From positions 96,001 through 160,000 of IMG/VR virus record IMGVR_UViG_3300031521_000011: DNA of 64,000 bases; one strand, written 5' to 3'. The position numbers were made by a program, and so were the translations under genes. Shown one piece after another: positions 3,940 to 64,000 of this stretch. How positions within the stretch are numbered: position 1 is the stretch's first letter; every line of letters starts with the position of its first letter. The notes beneath the pieces are model-generated. The model saw nothing but the letters and a program-made list of their open reading frames with translations, did no database searches and was not told where the DNA came from. The DNA is from a virus.

Positions 3940-5520
3940 GTGCGAAAAATGTATAGGGAACCTGCAGTACGTTTGCGCCAGAAGCTTAACCCCGAGTATG
4001 TCCTGGGATCCAGCCCGAATTTGATCCCCGTCATCATGGGTTCAGGCGCTACGCAGTTCAAGAAAACCCAAGCGATGAAAAGGGGTAGCGATCTTTATGA
4101 CGTACTTCCTTCTGATGCTGTAGTCTCCATGCTGACTGTCGGTAACTCAAGTGGTGTTGCCGATTACTCTTCATCGAATGACTTTACCAAGGTGACGCCA
4201 AACATCTTGCATTGGGGCAAGCTGGCAACAAGCGGAACAGTCGTATCCGCCACAGATACAACAGTTGTCCTCGCCACGACTGATTCAGCCGTAGATGACT
4301 TCTATAATGACAAAAAAATTGTCATTGTGAATGGCGTTGGCGCAGGCCAGACAAGGGTAATCACCAATTATGTCGGATCGACAAAGGCCGCCACCGTCGT
4401 CGCCTGGACCGTGAATCCTGATGCTACATCGGAGTATGAAATCTGGACTAACTCGGTGAAGGAACCTGAAATGGGAGATGTTTACTATGTCACATATGTG
4501 GCCGGTCCTGAATCCGACCAGTATGAGCCAAAGTTCGTCTCCAGCCCAGAAGAAGTAGAGGAGTTGTACGGTCCGGAGCTCAAATACGAAAACGGACTGA
4601 TCAATCCTGTTGTAGTTGGAGCAAAGTGCGCTCTCGCAAATCGTGCAAGCATTATCTGCATATTGCAGGTGGCCCTTGCCGGTTCCACAGTGGCCGTCAC
4701 TGACTATGAAAAGGCCTTCACGGAATATCTGGCTCATATGACATACGCATATCGCATAATTCCCATGGACCTCAGCACTACCATAGGCGAAGCCGCAGTG
4801 GCGTATGTTCGCCAGATGTCTGATCCGGAAGAGAAGATGGAATGCAAGACCATGATAGGCGTTGTTCATTCATCTACAACACATGCCGAGCTTATGACAA
4901 ACATCGGCGCTTACGCTGCAGCCTTTGGCGAGAAGCGTCTGATGATTCCTTATCCAGACAAGGCTACGAAGAAGCTCAGCGATGGCAACATATATGAACT
5001 TCCGGCCCCATACCTGCTTGCGGCTTATGCCGGCAAACAGTCTTCTCAGCCAATCGAGCAATCGATGACGAACAGTACGCTCGACGGCTTCATCACCCTT
5101 AAGGGTGTTAAGATGTCTCGTGCGCAAAAGAACCTTCTCGCAGAAAAAGGTGTTATGCTGCTGGAGCAGGCATCTCCCGGATTCCCAATCACGGTGCGCG
5201 ATGCATTGACGACAGACATGTCCAGCATCCAGACGCGCCAGGATATGGTTGTGTCCATCGTAGACTTTGCCAGCAAGTATATCCGTGATGTACTCGCTCC
5301 GTATATCGGCCCGACGAATACAACGACAGAAACCATCACCCGTATGAGAGGTTCTGTCAACACCGCTATCGCAGTGCTCGTGAGCATGCAAGTCCTGACG
5401 GGTGGCAGGATCACAGATATCTACCGGGATAGCCTGAGTCCAGACACCATCATTGTGAAGATCTCGGTTGATGTTCCATACCCCTGCAACTATATCGATG
5501 TTGACCTGTTCGTCAACTAA
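3940..5520 (+). CDS. Contractile tail sheath protein
   Basis: 526 aa; YREPAV N-terminus, EEVEELYG, ITVRDALTTD, C-terminal VPYPCNYIDV typical of sheath proteins. Confidence 0.85.
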   Translation: MRKMYREPAVRLRQKLNPEYVLGSSPNLIPVIMGSGATQFKKTQAMKRGSDLYDVLPSDAVVSMLTVGNSSGVADYSSSNDFTKVTPNILHWGKLATSGTVVSATDTTVVLATTDSAVDDFYNDKKIVIVNGVGAGQTRVITNYVGSTKAATVVAWTVNPDATSEYEIWTNSVKEPEMGDVYYVTYVAGPESDQYEPKFVSSPEEVEELYGPELKYENGLINPVVVGAKCALANRASIICILQVALAGSTVAVTDYEKAFTEYLAHMTYAYRIIPMDLSTTIGEAAVAYVRQMSDPEEKMECKTMIGVVHSSTTHAELMTNIGAYAAAFGEKRLMIPYPDKATKKLSDGNIYELPAPYLLAAYAGKQSSQPIEQSMTNSTLDGFITLKGVKMSRAQKNLLAEKGVMLLEQASPGFPITVRDALTTDMSSIQTRQDMVVSIVDFASKYIRDVLAPYIGPTNTTTETITRMRGSVNTAIAVLVSMQVLTGGRITDIYRDSLSPDTIIVKISVDVPYPCNYIDVDLFVN

Positions 5521-6763: not shown

Positions 6764-7176
6764 GCACCCCTTGGGGCATAATAAAGAGCACAGTGCTCAA
6801 CGCCAAGCAAGGGGTCATTACAGAAAAGCGCTTCAAGGATATGACGTCAATCCAATGGTACTTTCATTACCTTGAAGTATTGCAAGCCAATGAGAAAAAA
6901 GACAAAGCGACTATGGAATATATCGAACTTTTGACTATGTTTGTGAATCCTGAACTGGCAACTAAATGGCGTGAGATGAAGGCGCTCAAAGAAGCCAAGG
7001 AAGAAATTACGCCAGAGTCGTTCCCTGAAGTCTGGGCCAATATTAAATCGCAGATACCCGATATCGTTACAGTCCGATATTTGGATGCCAAGGCAAAAGA
7101 TCTGCTGCCCACATACCAACGTCCAAAGAAGAAGGAATATAAGACTCCTGGTATACAAATCAATAATTCCAAGTAG
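6760..7176 (+). CDS. Frameshift extension of tail assembly chaperone (gpT-like)
   Basis: -1 frame relative to gene 6311, open from the slip site (LGTPWGIIKSTVLNAK...); no clear RBS of its own. Confidence 0.7.
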   Translation, partial: LGTPWGIIKSTVLNAKQGVITEKRFKDMTSIQWYFHYLEVLQANEKKDKATMEYIELLTMFVNPELATKWREMKALKEAKEEITPESFPEVWANIKSQIPDIVTVRYLDAKAKDLLPTYQRPKKKEYKTPGIQINNSK

Positions 7177-7180
7177 AGTA

Positions 7181-10100
7181 ATGGTGGTGAGAGTTGTGGA
7201 ACAAGGTAATTCGATGGATGGTGCACTGCTCAGTGTACAGCAACAACAGCTCGATGAGTTAAGGAGCATTCGTGCACAGACGGCATCCGGTCCATTTGTC
7301 GCCGGCAGAGAGCAGACATCCTTCTCCCAATACTCGATGAATACCGGGGCGGCGCAGCAACAAGCGTCCGCCCAGGGTTTATTTATGCCGACGCCAAACG
7401 TTGGAGGAATCCCACTCTCTCCATTTACTCAAAATATGGGTAACTCCGCCGCAACATACATGCAGCAGGCAAATTTAAAACAGGCATTATTTAGCTATGA
7501 CCGCAATAGGGTATCCCGAGAGAACAGGGACTTAACCGGTATGCAGGCTGGTCAGAATATTTTTCAGGCTGGCTTGGCCGGGGCTGGTGCACTGGGCGGT
7601 CTCGGAGGAGATGCCCTTGGTACATCTATATTTGGTGGACTGGGATTAGCTGGCGGATTTGCCGGCGGCGCTATCGGCGGTGCTATTGGCGGTGCCGTAT
7701 TCGCATCTGCAGCGCAAGAGATGGGAGTGCAGTCCGGATATAGCAATTACTTGTTTCAGAATTCACAGCGCTTTATTAACCCATACGAATCTACAAATCG
7801 CAGATATGGTATGGGTTTCAATAACGATGAAAGGTCTGGCGCATCGTCATACTTGAGGTCATTATCGACAAGTAGAAATATTAGCGATACCGACATGAGT
7901 GGTATATTGAGCGGTGCAGTTGATCAAAACCTCCTGAAGGATGTTACAAATCTCAAGACATTCAAGGAAAAAATGGCTAAATTAACCGACAGCGTTAAGA
8001 CATCCGCCCTCTTGCTGAATGAAACATATCAGAACGTCACAAAGATGATGGGCGAACTTGAACGCGCGGGTGTATCAACCGGAAATTTCGATTACATGAT
8101 GGGAAAAATGAAGACACTGGGATCATTCACCGGCATGAATACGATGGAGGCCACAAATTCAACTTTGACCGTATCTGGCTCAAAAACCGGTACGGCATGG
8201 AATTCCGAGAGGCAGATCGAGAACTCCGCTTTGGATCTCAGGGTTATGCAGGTACTCAAAAATGGCGCTGATAAGAATCCAAATGGAACTCTTGGATTTA
8301 TAACGAATTTATATAATAATACCGAAGGCAGCACGGACGCAGAAAAACTGAGCAATCTTACAGTAAGGGCAAACCGAACCATGCAGGAAGTCATGGGAAA
8401 TCAAACCTTCCAATCAGCATATTCCGGATTGTTCAATTATAATGATGCCAGTGGTAAGTTTGAGCTTGACCAGAGTGCATATGATAGGTTTACTAGCGGG
8501 AATATGTCATATGCCGACATAATGGGTGAATCATCAAAGAAGATGACTGCATGGAGCGCGGATGGAAAGCATACCGGATTCCAGTGGCAGCAAATGGCTA
8601 ACGATACCTTTATGGATCTTACGGATGTACAGAAAGGAAAACTTCAAGGAACATTCTTTTCCACTGTTGGCCGTGATACGATGTTTGGTGAGACTGACCA
8701 ATCTACAATCATGGCAGGCCTTGGCATAGGCTCAACTGACGCTGATAGGAAATTGTTCACTCAACTTTACGGTACCCTTGGATCTAAAGGCAATATTTAT
8801 CAGAATGAGATGTCTCAAGAGGGATTCAATCAGACTATGCAGGCGAAAATAGATTCTGAATCTGAAGGTCTGTGGCAGTCAATCAAAAAAGTCTTTAACA
8901 CCATGTCTGATAAAATCGGAGATGCGGTTGAGCCTATGCGCAAAAGCATGGAAGAGGCTGGTGTTACATGGAAAGATATTTGGAACGGAACGCATCCAAC
9001 AAATCGCGTACAGTTTCAGGATCCATTAAATTTCACTGACTCAGGCGCTACCGGATCAGCAGAATCGATATCCAAGTCGATGAATGCATATATCTCAGAC
9101 TATCAAAAGTATGGTGGTACGACTAAGGATCTCGAATTGCTTGACCCTAAAGGACAACTCAGTGTGACTGGCGGAGGCGTTGATCAATATGGATCAAAGA
9201 TGACCGGTATCATGAAAATAGAAGATATCGACTATCTTAATAACGTCATGAACTCGAAAGCTAAAAGTACCTTCGAGCAGCATGGTGCCCTTATCCCAGC
9301 GCTTACTGTTGATGATATTGCCGCCTCAATGAATTTAACTTTCAATGAAGGGGACGACAAGCAGTCAATAACTCAAGAGGCGATGCTCCGTAAATATTCA
9401 AAAATGATACAACAGCTTCAGGGCGGAAAGGCCAGTGGCCTCAATGACTATGAGATCGTTGCAGGTAATCAGGCCCTTTCCACTATGTCGGATGCGCTTA
9501 AATGGATGGGCGTTGATGTGGCGCCTGTTAATAATCTAGGATACTCTAAAGAAATGCTTGCAACACTCCAAAATCAATATGGTGGAAAGACCACAGATTA
9601 CTATGGAGCCCTTAAAACACAAGCGGAGAAGTCTGCTAAATTAGATCTTACGAATAATGGATCAGATGCTACACGAAATGCAATAAATAGCCTAACGGCC
9701 GATGTAGCTGCGACAGGAGTAGCTCAAAGTAAAGCTGAATCTGATATTATGGCGGCCATGTCTGGATATTCAGATGCTGATTCGATTGCTGCCAGGGATC
9801 AGATTTCTAAACTTATGGACTCTATTCGCTCCGGAGATTTGGCTCCTGAAGATGCCAGAGCTCAATTTAATGCATTAAAATCATCAGGAAAAGCCAGTAG
9901 TCTTTATAGTGAAGTGTCAGACAAGTTCAACTTAGTAGCAGACAAAGCTATGGCAAAATCTTCAGGTGAAGCAATTCTCAAGACACGTAGTGAGGATAGT
10001 AGCAGGATTCTCGGGGCAATTAAAGCAGGAGGAAGTGTTGCCAGCCTCATTGGTGGAGATGCTGCATATAATAAATTACTGAGTGGTGCTACAGTTTCAA

Positions 10101-12972: not shown

Positions 12973-15900
12973 TTGTCAATGAGAACCATCGAGGCAATTC
13001 CTGGATACTTAATCTTCTTTGACGATATTAGGGTGGACCAGTTCGTTAAAAGCTTCAGTGTGAATTTATCTACTGATGGCGCAATGGGACAGGCCAGTTT
13101 TGATATGCTCTATTTGCCAGATCTAGCGTCGCAAGATTTTCGCGGTGTGGATGATGAGCTTTATAAAGTAATTGACACCATAGACAATATGACAAATGCG
13201 AAGGTGTTTATTAAAAATATCTTTTCAAACAAATATATGCAAGTATTTGACGGCAATATAAAGGGAAAGTCAGTAACTCGGTCACCGAATGGAAACACAT
13301 TGGTGTATAGCGCCATTGACTACATGGGGTGGCTTAATCGTACAATCGTTCCACTCCAAATACCAGTGGCGCAGAGAAAATTCAACCTGGATACTCTGCG
13401 TTGGAACGCAAATGGTGTGGACATCAATAAGGTGTGGTTGATGTCTAATGATGCAACTCTTGGATTTAAGGGCAAGAATGTTAAGCAGATGATGGCGATT
13501 ATCTCCAATCAGGCTCTTGCCAGCAACAAACTTTATTCACAAGACGGAAGTGTTGCGGTATGGGATAATGCCATTGGCCGTATTGATATAATGGGTGATA
13601 TTGATGCGCGTTGGCGCAATCCTGGCATTTTGGATTTCGTTATTAATCCACAACTTCAGAGCGTTCAGTCTTTCTATGTTTTTGCCAACGACCTGGTAAG
13701 CAAATTAATGTTTGAATTCTATCAGGATCGAGATGGAAAAATTCGCATCAAGCCTCCATTCTGGAATCAGCCAGTAATGAAAAGCCATATCATAGATGCC
13801 TCCATGATATTTGAAATATCTGAAAGATGTGATTGGACTCAGGGCAAAACCAGGGTCATTACCACCGGTGGAATTGAGGACATATATACTACAACAGGAA
13901 ATGTTGCCGCTCAAACAATCGTTACTCCAATCAATGTGTATGTTGGCGGAGGTTTTGGTGGTAAGGCATACACTATGTCTAATGTATTTCAGGAAAATCT
14001 GTTTTCAACAGATGGTGGTACTAAGGTTATAGATGGCGGTGGAGATTCTGTTTTCAAGAGTGTCAAGGAAAGCTTTTCATCATTAACCCTTGGTGCGCGA
14101 GCTCATGTTCAAAGGCTTGCGCTCTATAGTCGCGGAAAAATATTGAGCAGCGCTAAAATCGTTGATAATGGATATGCTGCCATCAAGAATAGCCCAACCG
14201 CAGGTCAGACAAAAAAATGGTCTGACATAAATAGTATATGGTTCTCAGATGGCGGAGTCGATACTGGAGCCAATGGACAATATTCAAAGAATATTGTCGA
14301 TACATTTAACTCCATGAAGTTAATTTCGTATATAGCTGGACAAACCGGGCCTTATGACTCAGTCGATACAACTCCATCCGGATATGATGTTGAAATTATT
14401 CCAGCCTCCGGAGACTTTACTAGCAATGGTGCGACTACACAGCAGATCGTTCAATATATTAGAAATAAGACTAATGGATTTGAGTCCATTAGTCTACCTC
14501 GTGTTGATGGAAAGAATCCGTGGTCCACCAAAGAGGCATTTGTGACGGATTTTGTTTCACAGTATATAATTGAGGCTATAGCGGAAAAAATGACACCGGG
14601 ACTCGTTATCGCCCAGGCTCTCGTATCCACCATGACCTTAACGAGTATCGATGTAACGGGTGGTCTTAAGATTATGGGAGACAGCAAGGTTGGTAGTCAA
14701 CCAGAGAGAAAGCTTATCGATGGCGATATGAACTTTGCTTTCCTATATTATATAGTAGAAAATAAAACCGGGGATACTGGCGATACTGGCGATACTGGCA
14801 ATACTGGCGATACCGGAAATACAACCCCAAACAACACCAATAAAGATGTATTCACAAGCGACGGTAGCCCGAGTTCCGCCGGAGCAATGCTTGGAGCTAT
14901 AATAAAATCAAGAGTTGGTGGCGGATATGTATATGCGACAGGATATAATGCAGTCAAGGGTAGAGCTGGAACAATTTGTACTGAATCAGTTATCCAGACG
15001 GCTGCACATAATCATCCCGTGGCATTTGCTGAAGTAATAAAGAAAGGAAAATGGAAAGGCAAGACGATCTTAGAGGTTGCTAGACAGTGGCTTGGATATG
15101 AAACATGGGATTGTTCTGGCTTGGTTACATGGGCTTGCGTACAGATTGGTATACCCAGATCACTCGTTGGGAATTGCAATGCCATATTCCACGTAAATGG
15201 AAAGCATCCTGGTGTTTTAAAAATAATGAAGAATGCCGGTATGGGTGGGCGTATTTCAAATACTGAGCCCGTACAGGTGGGAGACTTACTGTTCTGTCTT
15301 AGTTCTAGTAGTGAATCTCACCACATTGGTATGGTTTCAGATATACAAGGATCCGTTAAATATGTTACTGAGGCATCCAGTACTACGTCCGGAGTTGTTC
15401 ATGGTCCAATGAAGTCTACAAAATGGAGGGTATGGGCCAGATGGGACTTTACCCATACTGCAATGCGTGGCGATGCTGGAAGAGCGTATGCCCCCCCAAC
15501 CAGGCTTGAAATTCCCGCGCTTACAAAGGGCGGTAAAACTGGTACTGGCAATTCGACAGATATAGGTGATACTGGAGATACTGGAGATACAACTCCTGAT
15601 GAAGAAGATGTTAGCAATGTTGCCAATCTCAGTCAATTATTGAAGTGTTCACAAGAAGAACTTCGATATGGCGCTAACGTACTTGAGGTATCTCAGCCGC
15701 TTATTCGGTTCAGTACAATGAATGCTACAGCAGTCAGTGTACAGGGAGCAGATAGTAAATCCATGAGTGCGCTTGCTGCGTATAGTAGGTTTATGTATTT
15801 TTTATCAAATTCAATGACGAGAACTGCATCAGTTAGTATGATTGGTGCTCCATGGTTGCGCCCTGGGTTTAATGCCTGGGTGGATCCAACTCATACTGAT

Positions 15901-61135: not shown

Positions 61136-61213
61136 AGGACCCGGAGGAATTCGGACCCTCGACTTCCTGCCCCGTACGTTAGGCTGGCACTCTATCCACT
61201 GAGCTACGGGCCC
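61136..61213 (-). pseudogene. Aberrant tRNA-Arg-like gene (12-nt anticodon loop, no CCA)
   Basis: GGGCCCGTAGCTCAGTGGATAGAG 5' half, loop CTAACGTACGGG, T-loop TCCGAAT. Confidence 0.6.
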
Positions 61214-61226
61214 GAGGGGAGCCCGA

Positions 61227-62192
61227 TTACTCGGGCGCCTTTGTGTTTGAATTTGATAATTTAACCAACGCCTGAAGATTGTCTGTATGACAAAGTATTC
61301 TTGACTTATCCTCATGGCTAAGATTTTTTCTGGTAAGTGCATCCGAACATAGGCAGGCGATGGCGAACAGGATTGATTGCCTGGTATCCTCATCCTCAAC
61401 AATTGGTATGATCTTGCTTTGCTTCTGGATAGTGGGTGCCATATTCGCTTTGAGAACATTTATGGTGTTCATGATATCGGGTACCGATTCAAGCATGAGC
61501 TCCTTGTAGAATCCCTCATAGTCATAGGTGATCTTATCCAGCGGCTTAGATTCGATATCCTCCACATACTTGGTAAGCAGTTCGTAGCTCATCCTGTATG
61601 CATGGAAGCTGTGAGCAGTGTGAGTATAGCTACCAACTGGATATCCCATCTCTTCCGCCACCCGGCGCTGCAGGGCAATGAATCCGACTGCATTCATGTA
61701 GGTGGCCCTGACGGCATCGTTGCTTCTCATCATTACCTGCATATTCAGCCTTCCATCCCTATAAAGGAATTGGATGCTCTGCAGGCAGGCCGGATCTTTG
61801 TTTATGGAGTCAACTGCAAAATCCCTGATGCCCATTACCGCGCGCCGGGTATCCGCATTGCGCCTGAGTTCACTGTAAAGCCATGGGAGCTGTTTTTCAA
61901 AGCGGTTATGATAGGTATACTCCCAGCAGAGGCCGTCGCCAATCTTGAAATCCAGCACGCCATCCACAATTTCCATTGTGTACTGCTGCAGCTCCCGGTG
62001 ACCTCCCGGGAACAGCCTGCTGATGAATGGCTCTGCCGTGGCATTCTCCACAAACATTGTCATTCCGATTTCCTTGATATCCGTATTATAGTCGGGACAC
62101 GGATAAATTGGACCCTCCCTCTCCAGTACCACGAGCGCTTTGTGGTATGCCTCAGGTAGATTTGGCGCTTCGACGAAGTGATGTCTGTACAT
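61227..62192 (-). CDS. thyA: Thymidylate synthase (ThyA family)
   Basis: EYTYHNR, TRRAV, DPACLQ catalytic Cys, MRSND, HSFHAY. Confidence 0.85.
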   Translation of the reverse strand: MYRHHFVEAPNLPEAYHKALVVLEREGPIYPCPDYNTDIKEIGMTMFVENATAEPFISRLFPGGHRELQQYTMEIVDGVLDFKIGDGLCWEYTYHNRFEKQLPWLYSELRRNADTRRAVMGIRDFAVDSINKDPACLQSIQFLYRDGRLNMQVMMRSNDAVRATYMNAVGFIALQRRVAEEMGYPVGSYTHTAHSFHAYRMSYELLTKYVEDIESKPLDKITYDYEGFYKELMLESVPDIMNTINVLKANMAPTIQKQSKIIPIVEDEDTRQSILFAIACLCSDALTRKNLSHEDKSRILCHTDNLQALVKLSNSNTKAPE

Positions 62193-62213: not shown

Positions 62214-62364
62214 TAAATAGGGTATACGGTAGTCTGGCTCTCAACGGGGTTCGGACCCGTACTCAACGACAATGCGTCAGTCCTTCCAATTGGGCTATGA
62301 GATAAATTGAGTCTCTGTTCTTGATGCAGAAACCACAATCCCAGACTACCGTATACCCTATTTA
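62214..62364. repeat. 24-bp perfect inverted repeat enclosing a tRNA-like sequence
   Basis: TAAATAGGGTATACGGTAGTCTGG at 62214-62237 and its reverse complement at 62341-62364. Confidence 0.9.
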
Positions 62365-62372
62365 TTTTTAAA

Positions 62373-62461
62373 TGGCGGAAGTAGTAGGACTCGAACCCAC
62401 AGGCCCTTTCGGGCTCACCGGTTTTCAAGACCGGCTCCTTAACCAATTCGGACATACTTCC
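62373..62461 (-). tRNA. tRNA-Ser(TGA)
   Basis: Cloverleaf, long variable arm, CT-TGA-AA, GCCA end. Confidence 0.92.
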
Positions 62462-62472
62462 AAAAAGCAAAA

Positions 62473-62560
62473 TGGTGCGCCGGGAAGGATTTGAACCTCC
62501 GTACCCCGAAGGGAGCAGGTTTACAGCCTGCCGCCATTGACCAGACTCGGCCACCGACGC
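62473..62560 (-). tRNA. tRNA-Tyr(GTA)
   Basis: CT-GTA-AA, long variable arm, ACCA end. Confidence 0.9.
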
Positions 62561-62563
62561 ATA

Positions 62564-62649
62564 TGGTGCGAGAGATGGGACTTGAACCCACACGGCCTTT
62601 CGGTCACCAGCCCCTCAAACTGGCGCGGCTGCCATTACGCCACCCTCGC
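62564..62649 (-). tRNA. tRNA-Leu(GAG)
   Basis: TT-GAG-GG loop, long variable arm, ACCA end. Confidence 0.9.
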
Positions 62650-62653
62650 AAAC

Positions 62654-62730
62654 TGGCGGCTCCAGGGAGACTCGAACTCCCGACCTCTGCCGTGACAGGG
62701 CAGCGCGATAACCAACTTCGCTATGGAGTC
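62654..62730 (-). tRNA. tRNA-Asp(GTC)
   Basis: CT-GTC-AC loop, GCCA end. Confidence 0.92.
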
Positions 62731-62733
62731 AAA

Positions 62734-62982
62734 TTACTGATTGGGTTTTCGTGACCACTTAAAGATACCTTCAAAGTTTAAATAGATGAAGAAGAGGATT
62801 CCAACGCCCTGTGCCCAGTTCCGGGTTGCGACGTCAAAAGCTATTGTACATGCATTTGCGATTAAAAACAAGTAGAAGCCCTTTGAATTTTTTCTGTTGA
62901 TGAAAATTGAACCTGCGATGCTGAAAATGGTGGAAACCCATAGTGCTACCTGGAGAATGTCTTGTGTTGTCATTTCTTCCAT
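62734..62982 (-). CDS. Small 3-TM protein, PnuC-like half transporter
   Basis: RKNSKGFYLFLIAN...YLNFEGIFKW pattern typical of PnuC-like triple-helix units. Confidence 0.55.
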   Translation of the reverse strand: MEEMTTQDILQVALWVSTIFSIAGSIFINRKNSKGFYLFLIANACTIAFDVATRNWAQGVGILFFIYLNFEGIFKWSRKPNQ

Positions 62983-63125
62983 CCTACCCCACTTTTTCTA
63001 TTCTTTTTTCTTTTTATATTGACAATAATACAGGCTCCAAGAAGAGCAGCAATTAGCGCAACAATAACACCAATATCAATGATGACCAAGAATAAGAGTT
63101 GATCCACAATTTTAACCAAATGCAT
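62970..63125 (-). CDS. Small single-TM protein (51 aa, not in ORF track)
   Basis: GGAGGT RBS; hydrophobic helix followed by basic tail. Confidence 0.55.
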   Translation of the reverse strand: MHLVKIVDQLLFLVIIDIGVIVALIAALLGACIIVNIKRKKNRKSGVGWKK

Positions 63126-63152
63126 CTTTTTACCTCCTATTTGATTTTAGAA

Positions 63153-63249
63153 TGCACCCAGCTGCCGGGCTCGAACCGACATACTCCCGTATCCACGATG
63201 ATCAGTCATGAGTCGTTGGAGTTCTAGGCCAATTGATTTAAACTGGGAT
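63153..63249 (-). ncRNA. tRNA-like RNA with enlarged anticodon arm
   Basis: CCCAG/CTGGG acceptor, T-arm GTCGG-TTCGAGC-CCGGC, extended ACTCC...GGAGT arm. Confidence 0.5.
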
Positions 63250-63253
63250 AAAT

Positions 63254-63329
63254 TGGAGCTCCGGATAGGAATCGAACCTACAACCTCCTGATTACAAATC
63301 AGGCGCTCTGCCAGTTGAGCTACCGGAGC
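63254..63329 (-). tRNA. tRNA-Thr(TGT)
   Basis: TT-TGT-AA loop, TCCA end. Confidence 0.92.
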
Positions 63330-63330
63330 A

Positions 63331-63472
63331 TGGTACCGGGTGTTGTCGCACATCCGGCAAATCGCCTTTTCTATATACGAGCCGGCCGGCTGCATACACA
63401 GAAGGGCTGCATCACCATACTTACTGCATTAGCCGGCCGGCCTACAGGTTTTCTGGATCGCGGTTGCCCTGT
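63331..63472 (-). ncRNA. Putative structured ncRNA ending in CCA
   Basis: Three GC-rich helices; last hairpin ends ...CCGGTA-CCA. Confidence 0.4.
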
Positions 63473-63554
63473 TGGTGCCACCCGAGTAGACGCCGAGCCA
63501 CTCTTTCCGATGGTATTTTCTTACCACCACCCCTACGCTTGGGCTAGGATGACA
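63473..63554 (-). ncRNA. Non-canonical tRNA-like RNA with CCA
   Basis: 8-bp TGTCATCC/GGGTGGCA acceptor + CCA, D-like, anticodon-like and T-like arms. Confidence 0.55.
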
Positions 63555-63559
63555 TGTAA

Positions 63560-63636
63560 TGGTGCTACCTGATGGGATCGAACCAACGACCTCTCGCGTA
63601 TCAGGCGAGCGCTCTAACCAGCTGAGCTACAGTAGC
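63560..63636 (-). tRNA. tRNA-Ile(GAT)
   Basis: CT-GAT-AC loop, ACCA end. Confidence 0.9.
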
Positions 63637-63641
63637 ATATT

Positions 63642-63708
63642 TGGCGAGGCATGCTTGGGGAGAAAGCACACCCCGCCGGCGCTTGGGAAAGAGGAGAATA
63701 CTGCCTCA
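63642..63708 (-). ncRNA. CCA-terminated mini-RNA with pyrimidine-rich (anti-SD-like) loops
   Basis: TGAGGCA/TGCCTCG stem + CCA; TGCTT-TCTCCCC-AAGCA hairpin; TTCTCCTCTTTCCC tract. Confidence 0.5.
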
Positions 63709-63718
63709 CAGAGGAGGC

Positions 63719-63796
63719 TGGTGGATCTTCTCCGATTCGGACGGAGGACCTATCGGTTATGAGCCGACTGCTCTGACCAGGCTGAGCTAAAGATCC
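63719..63796 (-). tRNA. tRNA with CAT anticodon, probably Ile2 (lysidine) type
   Basis: GGATCTTTAGCTCAG...CGGCTCATAACCG resembles Firmicutes tRNA-Ile2; T-loop is TCCGAAT. Confidence 0.8.
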
Positions 63797-64000
63797 ATGT
63801 TGTAAATGCATTGTGGCTCGAATCGTGCTCTTATTGTACACTGTTCGAGGAATGTATTCAAGATAGAAATAGAGTCTGTCAATAACATTGCAAACTTTTC
63901 CTTCAAGGTGCTCTTCATCAATGGTCGTAGGTTAAAACCATCAATTTACTTTTTCACCCTGCTCTATACCTCGCCATATGTACGAGATATAATGCGTTCG

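Follow-up and report, generated by a model that had tools for sequence, protein, structure and literature searches.

Five structured units among the tRNA genes of a phage operon

The window analysed here, that is, the whole stretch of 64,000 nucleotides, covers bases 96,001–160,000 of the 168,244-bp IMG/VR virus record IMGVR_UViG_3300031521_000011, which comes from an uncultured phage and is rated complete by CheckV. Near its end lies an array of tRNA genes, all of them on the minus strand, which runs past the window end to about 166.8 kb in genome position. Between the canonical tRNAs of this array lie five further structured units, E1 to E5, which are the subject of this work. Read along the minus strand, the order is tRNA-Met, E5, tRNA-Ile, E4, E3, tRNA-Thr, E2, two small open reading frames (ORFs), tRNA-Asp, Leu, Tyr and Ser, then E1 and then a thymidylate-synthase-like (thyA-like) gene. 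The units tile the gaps between the canonical tRNAs, with 0–6 nt between them, and the five together make up about 0.6 kb of spacer. They are of two kinds: E1, E2 and E4 are tRNA-derived or tRNA-shaped, E3 and E5 are CCA-ended, hairpin-rich spacers, and none of the five can decode.

The window holds ten canonical tRNAs, on which ARAGORN and Rfam agree, and CCA is encoded in every canonical tRNA of the array. Those that frame the elements are tRNA-Met(CAU) (63719..63796; Rfam 61.8 bits), tRNA-Ile(GAU) (63560..63636), tRNA-Thr(UGU) (63254..63329; Rfam 72.6 bits) and the run of tRNA-Asp(GUC), Leu(GAG), Tyr(GUA) and Ser(UGA) (62373..62730), all of them, like every other window feature described below, on the minus strand. 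With these tRNAs as the frame, an earlier note on this stretch, made by a model from the letters alone, was right in placing five elements between the canonical tRNAs and in giving four of them an encoded CCA end. The four are E1, E3, E4 and E5; E2 ends in GCA. Protein coding was rejected for all five, since JGI called no gene in these segments and the only ORFs found there overlap tRNAs.

E4 (63473..63553) is an 81-nt RNA whose minimum free energy (MFE) structure, computed with RNAfold, is a complete cloverleaf. The acceptor (7 bp) is joined by a D stem of 4 bp, an 'anticodon' stem of 7 bp that carries the 6-nt loop AGAAAA, and an arm at the T position that lacks the T-loop consensus; the 3' end is a four-base ACCA tail. 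The MFE structure is likewise a complete cloverleaf in 4 of 4000 random 81-nt windows of the genome and in 5 of the 13 real tRNAs of the phage. ARAGORN finds E4 only at ps80; all of the stem pairs that it draws are intact (23/23), and no loop consensus is present.

E2 (63153..63247) is a tRNA-derived unit that ARAGORN, run with -ps, reports as a 92-nt 'tRNA-Met'. Its acceptor is a perfect 7 bp and its T arm, with the loop UUCGAGC, follows the consensus. Where an anticodon loop would be expected there is a 14-nt loop made of two heptads, CUCAUGA-CUGAUCA, which can alternatively be drawn as an extended arm. This loop or arm has a pyrimidine at position 37, and a 4-bp extra arm follows it. The heptads match the anticodon loops of tRNA-Met (CUCAUAA) and tRNA-Ile (CUGAUAC) of the same operon at 6/7 and 5/7 positions, and they likewise resemble a simple 7-nt tandem duplication. 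The two tRNA-type folds of E2 (-17.3 and -20.4 kcal/mol) lie 5–8 kcal/mol above its MFE of -25.4 kcal/mol. The unit ends in UGCA, without CCA, ahead of the ribosome-binding site of a 51-aa ORF, 18 nt away. This ORF is the first of two small membrane-protein ORFs of 51 and 82 aa (62734..63125), called by JGI in contig L010, which lie within the tRNA operon; the product of the 82-aa ORF is weakly PnuC-like.

E1 (62236-62304) is a degenerate tRNA set in a larger module (62214..62364), in which a perfect 24-bp inverted repeat (62341-62364 / 62214-62237) encloses both a 13-bp hairpin (62305-62340) and E1 itself. Its acceptor is 5 bp long, its anticodon loop has 6 nt, and its T arm is intact, with the loop UCCGAAC, a variant also found in tRNA-Met and tRNA-Val of this phage. 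The 3' repeat arm starts with the CCA of E1, whose three bases form the first three pairs of the 24-bp duplex. The module forms the 5' untranslated region (5' UTR) of the thyA-like gene (61227..62192), whose ribosome-binding site comes next. Alignment to bacterial homologues confirmed the start codon of this gene, which is 67–71% identical to Clostridia genes from the first codon on and carries a C-terminal extension of about 70 aa that is missing from all listed homologues. Since its nearest homologues are from Clostridia, the host of the phage is probably a member of this class. The repeat arm of E1 has no second copy in the genome, in IMG/VR or in the GTDB genomes, and a mobile-element origin of the repeat was rejected for this reason.

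E3 (63331..63472) is a 142-nt hairpin-rich RNA. One of its three hairpins is a 12-bp G+C stem built on GCCGGCCGGC; the last one, UGCCGG/CCGGUA, abuts the CCA, and tRNA-Thr begins 1 nt on. E5 (63642..63718) is a 77-nt spacer RNA with an MFE of -32.0 kcal/mol, and no shuffle was as stable. Its 5' hairpin is followed by 25 nt of unpaired, C/U-rich linker and then by a hairpin of 14 bp, the 3' strand of which continues into the final ..GCC-A; tRNA-Ile begins 5 nt later. Both Cs of the CCA are paired in this 14-bp hairpin; an acceptor-type fold has -19.0 kcal/mol compared to -29.4 kcal/mol for the processed form with the hairpin, a cost of about 10 kcal/mol. The heptamer CUCCUCU occurs twice in E5, in the 5' hairpin and in the linker. 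The hairpins of E3 and E5 were rejected as intrinsic terminators, because no U tract lies behind them.

As the earlier note had expected, the standard finders miss these elements. Default ARAGORN reports 0/5, and Rfam stays below threshold for all of them: E1 scores 18.5 bits with RF00005, the family threshold being 29 bits, and E2–E5 give no Rfam match at E<=10 in a 591-nt search. When ARAGORN is relaxed it first finds E2 at -ps, E1 at ps85 and E4 at ps80, and it finds nothing in E3 and E5 even at ps70. Thus, the tRNA-likeness proposed for the whole group holds for E1, E2 and E4 and fails for E3 and E5, and the picture of one set of tRNA-like RNAs had to be given up: the elements are heterogeneous, two of them being hairpin spacers. 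The proposal that they do not serve in decoding is, for its part, well supported by the anatomy, since their loops have 6 or 14 nt or no anticodon arm exists, and the tRNA model gives 18.5 bits at most. A 7-nt anticodon loop on a 5-bp stem is present in none of E1–E5. The T-loop consensus UUCRANY on a 5-bp stem, combined with a 7-bp acceptor, is found in E2, nearly so in E1, and not in E3, E4 or E5. ARAGORN -m detected no tmRNA, and the Rfam families other than tRNA gave no credible match on E1–E5 at E<=10; ribozyme, riboswitch, tmRNA and Y RNA identities were rejected on these results.

As a false-positive background we used the 157 kb outside the array on both strands (314 kb of strand), in which ARAGORN returned 1 match at ps90, 15 at ps85 and 65 at ps80, 8 of these 65 having CCA near the 3' end. 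Scaled to the roughly 0.6 kb of spacer, the number of matches expected by chance is about 0.002 for E2, a bound derived from the 90% rate; with CCA required, it is 0.004 for E1 and 0.015 for E4. Because of these genome-wide rates, and of the cloverleaf MFE of E4, the tRNA shape of E1, E2 and E4 exceeds chance. All three retain a tRNA-type top (the acceptor plus the T-position arm, or the whole cloverleaf), but no usable anticodon loop is left in any of them.

The CCA ends of E3 and E5 have to be judged differently. A 7-bp (7/7) closure within 55–160 nt followed by NCCA is found at about 7% of all CCA triplets in the genome, and what is unusual in these two spacers is the register of the CCA, not the combination of helix and CCA itself. 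The distance from CCA to the next tRNA is 1 nt for E3 and 5 nt for E5, the real tRNAs here having 3–11 nt. By a post hoc estimate, the chance of such a register is about 0.09 per spacer.

Fold z-scores were calculated against dinucleotide shuffles. In 120 background windows of the genome they averaged -0.3 (sd 1.2, lowest -3.7), and the real tRNAs of the array gave 0 to -2.8. E5 scored -4.4 (-4.2 to -4.4), E3 -2.3 (-2.2 to -2.3), E4 -2.0, E2 +0.1 and E1 +0.6. E5, as well as E1 when taken with its repeat (z -7.3 to -7.5), folds far better than the 120 background windows.

Setting of the array and its relatives

The window stretch is present at 100% identity in two JGI metagenome contigs (L010 and L011), and the phage occurs in the environments of JGI samples 3300029989 and 3300030339. 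The DnaE of the nearest deposited phages is only about 40% identical. Relatives were sought with neighbouring proteins as anchors. The adjacent 350-aa protein led to three relatives and the metallophosphoesterase to two more, of which one (L029) has no island and the other (L030) is a contig too short to show it. The thyA-like protein gave only distant viral loci and bacterial chromosomes, the 438-aa AAA/SMC-like neighbour protein gave no useful relative, and the 230-aa protein encoded in the island proved to be an orphan. Scans of IMG/VR and the JGI metagenomes by alignment added no further relatives. The closest relative (Logan SRR29758288) has 56–66% protein identity, and its assembly (L015 and L022) ends inside tRNAs on both sides of the segment equivalent to E1–E5, in tRNA-Arg(UCU) at the end of L022 and in tRNA-Leu(UAA) at the start of L015.

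The tRNA genes belong to an island of about 12 kb that is absent from two more distant relatives, in which the flanking genes adjoin each other. These flanking genes are those for the metallophosphoesterase and for the 350-aa protein, and they are neighbours in L016, L017 and L029. Since relatives have the flanking genes side by side without the tRNA island, this block of tRNA, RNA and accessory genes is a lineage-specific and hypervariable insertion hot spot. Besides E1–E5, it holds at least eight further aberrant tRNA-like units; aberrant and canonical units are about equally numerous in the phage, 13 each. At genome 164470-164539, beyond the window, an aberrant unit can be aligned with the canonical tRNA-Lys(CUU) of the relative, which shows that real tRNAs are remodelled or decay in this island. 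Self-BLAST revealed no paralogues of E1–E5 in the genome, and the elements have no significant similarity to any tRNA of the phage or of the relative. Blastn of each element against 50,697 phage records gave no credible match, and exact-pattern scans of IMG/VR and the GTDB genomes gave none.

The island of the closest relative carries, in L022 (14132-15458 and 15525-17045), eight tandem RNA units of 73–140 nt directly upstream of a 506-aa Ro60/TROVE gene. These units share a handle, 5' GGUUGCGCAG ... 3' UAUUCUCC, and have covarying outer stems; three of the eight contain tRNA-like modules in which the T arm precedes the D arm and which score 34–45 bits with the Rfam YrlA model. On this evidence, the locus appears to be a phage Ro60 whose set of Y RNAs is unusually large and varied. 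In the island of the phage studied here there is a Tad2-like (anti-Thoeris) gene (L013 8998-9336, minus strand). Together with the Ro60 and Y-RNA-like genes of the relative, it shows that the island holds RNA-based and counter-defence cargo. No RNA-repair genes, CCA-adding enzyme, peptidyl-tRNA hydrolase or Ro60 were found in the phage by searches of the record; for TROVE/Ro60 there was no match at E<=1 in the 168-kb record, though the host may encode a Ro60.

YrlA and other Y RNAs (Rfam RF02553; Chen et al. 2014, PMC4201824) resemble our elements in being non-decoding tRNA mimics that phages encode among tRNA genes. However, E1–E5 have neither a YrlA match at E<=10 nor the permuted arm order, and they lack the handle of the relative's Y-like units, except for one UAUUCUCC in E5 that is at chance level. 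E5 as a collapsed Y-RNA handle (GAGG-CAG-UAUUCU-CCUC) was rejected, because the 8-mer occurs at chance frequency in the genome. The sole YrlA match in the genome (38 bits, L013 8483-8600) covers parts of two adjacent tRNA-like units, the T arm of the first and the D arm of the second, and is therefore probably an artefact of tandem tRNAs; the authors of the family warn of false positives of this kind.

Likeness to known RNAs and possible origins

The closest known counterparts are the stable RNAs rnaC (species 1, 139 nt) and rnaD (species 2, 119 nt) of phage T4. We know of no function for either of them. They lie head-to-tail with tRNAs on the same strand, and E1–E5 likewise are encoded within a tRNA cluster, on its strand and abutting its tRNAs. 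A comparison through the T4 genome record (NC_000866 70908-71171) extends the likeness to details. As occurs with E2, rnaC lacks both a normal cloverleaf and an encoded CCA, while its T arm follows the consensus and a closing stem is present; rnaD resembles E3 and E5 in that it shows no tRNA likeness and encodes an ACCA 5 nt ahead of the next RNA. The likeness is anatomical only, the best BLAST piece being 13 nt, and since there is no sequence homology we regard the elements, by analogy, as the same kind as rnaC and rnaD and not as the same family. The differences are clear as well: five units are interleaved with tRNAs here, whereas the two of T4 stand at the cluster end; E4 forms the full cloverleaf, and a 24-bp duplex cages E1; and the T4 RNAs were shown to accumulate, whereas E1–E5 are known from sequence alone. 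Aberrant and pseudo-tRNAs in mobile bacterial and phage arrays offer a second likeness, as these arrays also are a dense mix of canonical tRNAs and units that fail the detectors; those of viruses are the subject of a survey (PMC6409571). In our case, however, E3 and E5 are not tRNA-derived at all and E4 is an intact cloverleaf without the tRNA loop consensus.

Plant mitochondrial t-elements and the mascRNA of MALAT1 are tRNA-shaped, non-decoding cutting signals for RNase P and RNase Z at transcript borders. Like these punctuation elements, E2 and E1 lie exactly at tRNA-to-mRNA junctions. Moreover, 5/6 of the units that directly precede an ORF in the array are aberrant, and 4 of those 5 are without CCA. 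The known elements are eukaryotic or organellar, and the pattern in the phage is only suggestive (p = 0.08).

Taken together, we read the stretch as one minus-strand phage tRNA operon, probably transcribed together with its small ORFs, in which the five elements would be non-decoding passengers freed by the tRNA-processing machinery. We give this reading an even chance of being right; co-transcription, processing, stability and any use of the elements are what we infer, not what we observed. Maturation by the tRNA pathway is a reasonable inference because of the position in the operon, the CCA in the register of the real tRNAs and the tRNA-shaped tops of E1, E2 and E4. RNase P would cut 5' of every tRNA and probably also 5' of the tRNA-shaped units, and 3' trimming would halt at the ends where a helix is followed by CCA. 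E5, E4 and E3 would therefore leave the precursor as discrete RNAs of 66–142 nt with tRNA-like, exonuclease-resistant 3' ends, as rnaC and rnaD do in T4. E2, which has no CCA and stands before a ribosome-binding site, and E1, which sits in the 24-bp duplex of the thyA leader, are both found at tRNA-to-mRNA junctions and would more likely act in cis, as cutting or stabilising points, than as free RNAs.

A more ambitious version of the same idea is that the units form a selected kit. The tRNA-shape mimics and the CCA-tagged hairpins would be released by tRNA-processing enzymes of the host, the CCA-less look-alikes (E2, the odd 'tRNA-Val(AAC)' described below and two more units outside the window) would mark the 5' ends of mRNAs as signals to cut or protect, and E4 and E5 would act in trans on tRNA-binding proteins or ribosome-binding sites. 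If true, it would be the bacterial-virus version of tRNA punctuation. We think it unlikely.

Several results weigh against the passengers and would suit the main rival explanation, which we consider doubtful, though well within reach: that E1, E2 and perhaps E4 are dead tRNA genes and E3 and E5 neutral spacer or remnants in a fast-turnover island, their transcripts being degraded and the CCA being inherited or there by chance. E1 has two mismatched acceptor pairs and a loop one base short, and in E2 the CCA has become GCA and the D stem is broken, all as in decaying genes. Neither of the two folds better than its shuffles, and their tRNA-type folds are not their MFE structures. The similar numbers of aberrant and canonical units, as well as the unit that aligns with tRNA-Lys(CUU), fit remodelling or decay of real tRNAs. 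The whole island, inserted between genes that adjoin in other relatives, is missing in 2/4 relatives; it is thus hypervariable DNA in which leftovers are plausible. No homologue of any element was found in the genome, the 50,697 phage records, IMG/VR or the GTDB genomes, and the two other contigs with this stretch do not differ from the window (100% identity). The pattern at the junctions is statistically weak (one-sided Fisher test, p = 0.08), and the canonical tRNA-Pro here and the canonical tRNA-Met in the relative precede ORFs too. Finally, a helix followed by NCCA is frequent by chance, which leaves the argument from the CCA of E3 and E5 with two spacers as its basis, and it was made post hoc. 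Yet decay does not account equally well for all five. E4 retains its complete set of stem pairs without loop consensus or similarity to any tRNA, which is hard to reconcile with old neutral decay; E5 and the repeat module of E1 are far more stable than the background; the CCA stands in tRNA register at both of the non-tRNA spacers; and unused DNA is usually lost from phage genomes, whereas these units occupy about 0.6 kb here. E1 and E2 are most like decaying genes, and E4, E5 and the E1 duplex least.

Two further explanations assign the units a role in trans, and we find both of them quite improbable. According to one, the tRNA-shaped units are decoys or sponges that titrate host defence nucleases, toxins or modification enzymes directed at tRNAs. 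The resemblance of the E2 heptads to the anticodon loops of tRNA-Met and tRNA-Ile would fit such a role, as would the Tad2-like gene in the island and the relative's island with Ro60 and eight Y-RNA-like genes. However, the E2 resemblance was noticed post hoc and may also reflect the tandem duplication, the loops of E1 and E4 are unlike any real anticodon loop and would make poor bait for an anticodon nuclease, and the phage has none of the RNA-repair, CCA-adding, peptidyl-tRNA hydrolase or Ro60 genes searched for. The other, to which we likewise give little credence, is that E5 and possibly E3 are regulatory small RNAs cut from the tRNA precursor, the C/U-rich linker with CUCCUCUUUCCC pairing with Shine-Dalgarno regions or sponging an RNA. 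The MFE layout of E5, with its 5' hairpin, open C/U-rich segment and very stable 3' hairpin, is typical of small RNAs, CUCCUCU occurs twice within its 77 nt, and a spacer-derived RNA is functional in E. coli: 3'ETS-leuZ, a 53-nt 3' trailer that acts with Hfq, is a tRNA-processing by-product with a role of its own (Lalaouna et al. 2015, via PMC8166272). Against this, any C/U-rich stretch complements ribosome-binding sites, so that the match is not specific, and at the time of that review (PMC8166272) no stable internal tRNA spacer had been reported. Unlike 3'ETS-leuZ, E3 and E5 are internal spacers, have strong hairpins and end in CCA, and the phage that carries them probably infects Clostridia.

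At present the value of the elements is descriptive, and they give a warning, namely that a CCA behind a helix is weak evidence when taken alone. Since T4, phage tRNA clusters have been known to contain additional small RNAs, and to our knowledge these have never been explained. This phage is a compact example of several distinct designs: a cloverleaf free of loop consensus, a tRNA top whose loop is doubled, hairpins that end in CCA and, before a gene, a tRNA remnant caged in a duplex. Should the RNAs prove to be made and to be stable, they would be well suited for asking what RNAs of this kind do and whether look-alikes of tRNAs mark the ends of mRNAs in phage operons.

Other features of the array

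A candidate sigma-70-like promoter, TTGAAT-17-TACAAT (63833..63861), came out of a consensus scan, about 35 nt upstream of tRNA-Met. It is no more than a candidate, because sites of this kind are just as numerous in the region as expected from shuffles. The site is included in the 339-nt spacer between tRNA-Gly and tRNA-Met (genome 159797-160135, minus strand; window 63797-64000 and on to L013 4136), which shows long-range pairing and has a fold z-score of -6.2.

The unit called tRNA-Val(AAC) (61136-61213, 43 bits) is itself aberrant. Its anticodon stem is poorly paired, the loop region has extra bases, no CCA is encoded, and the ribosome-binding site of a 58-aa ORF follows immediately. In a second cluster of tRNA-like units, which lies beyond the window (L013 6860-8620, minus strand; genome 162.9-164.6 kb), the D and T arms are canonical. 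The anticodon arms are remodelled in this cluster, with 5-nt loops, one unit of 115 nt carries insertions, and most units have no CCA.

After one tRNA-like unit there is a block of about 65 nt (L013 8401-8468, minus strand) that is about 88% identical to L022 13783-13852 in the relative, and thus better conserved between the two phages than the tRNA-like units that flank it; RNAalifold found no convincing shared fold for this block. Note that the motif (C)UGGCAGCCGGGAAAnAGaCCGG recurs shortly upstream of several tRNA-like units, on the minus strand of L013 at about 8620-8645, 8335-8360, 6940-6967 and 4030-4050, and is conserved in the relative (L022, about 13885-13910). It could be a processing or promoter signal.

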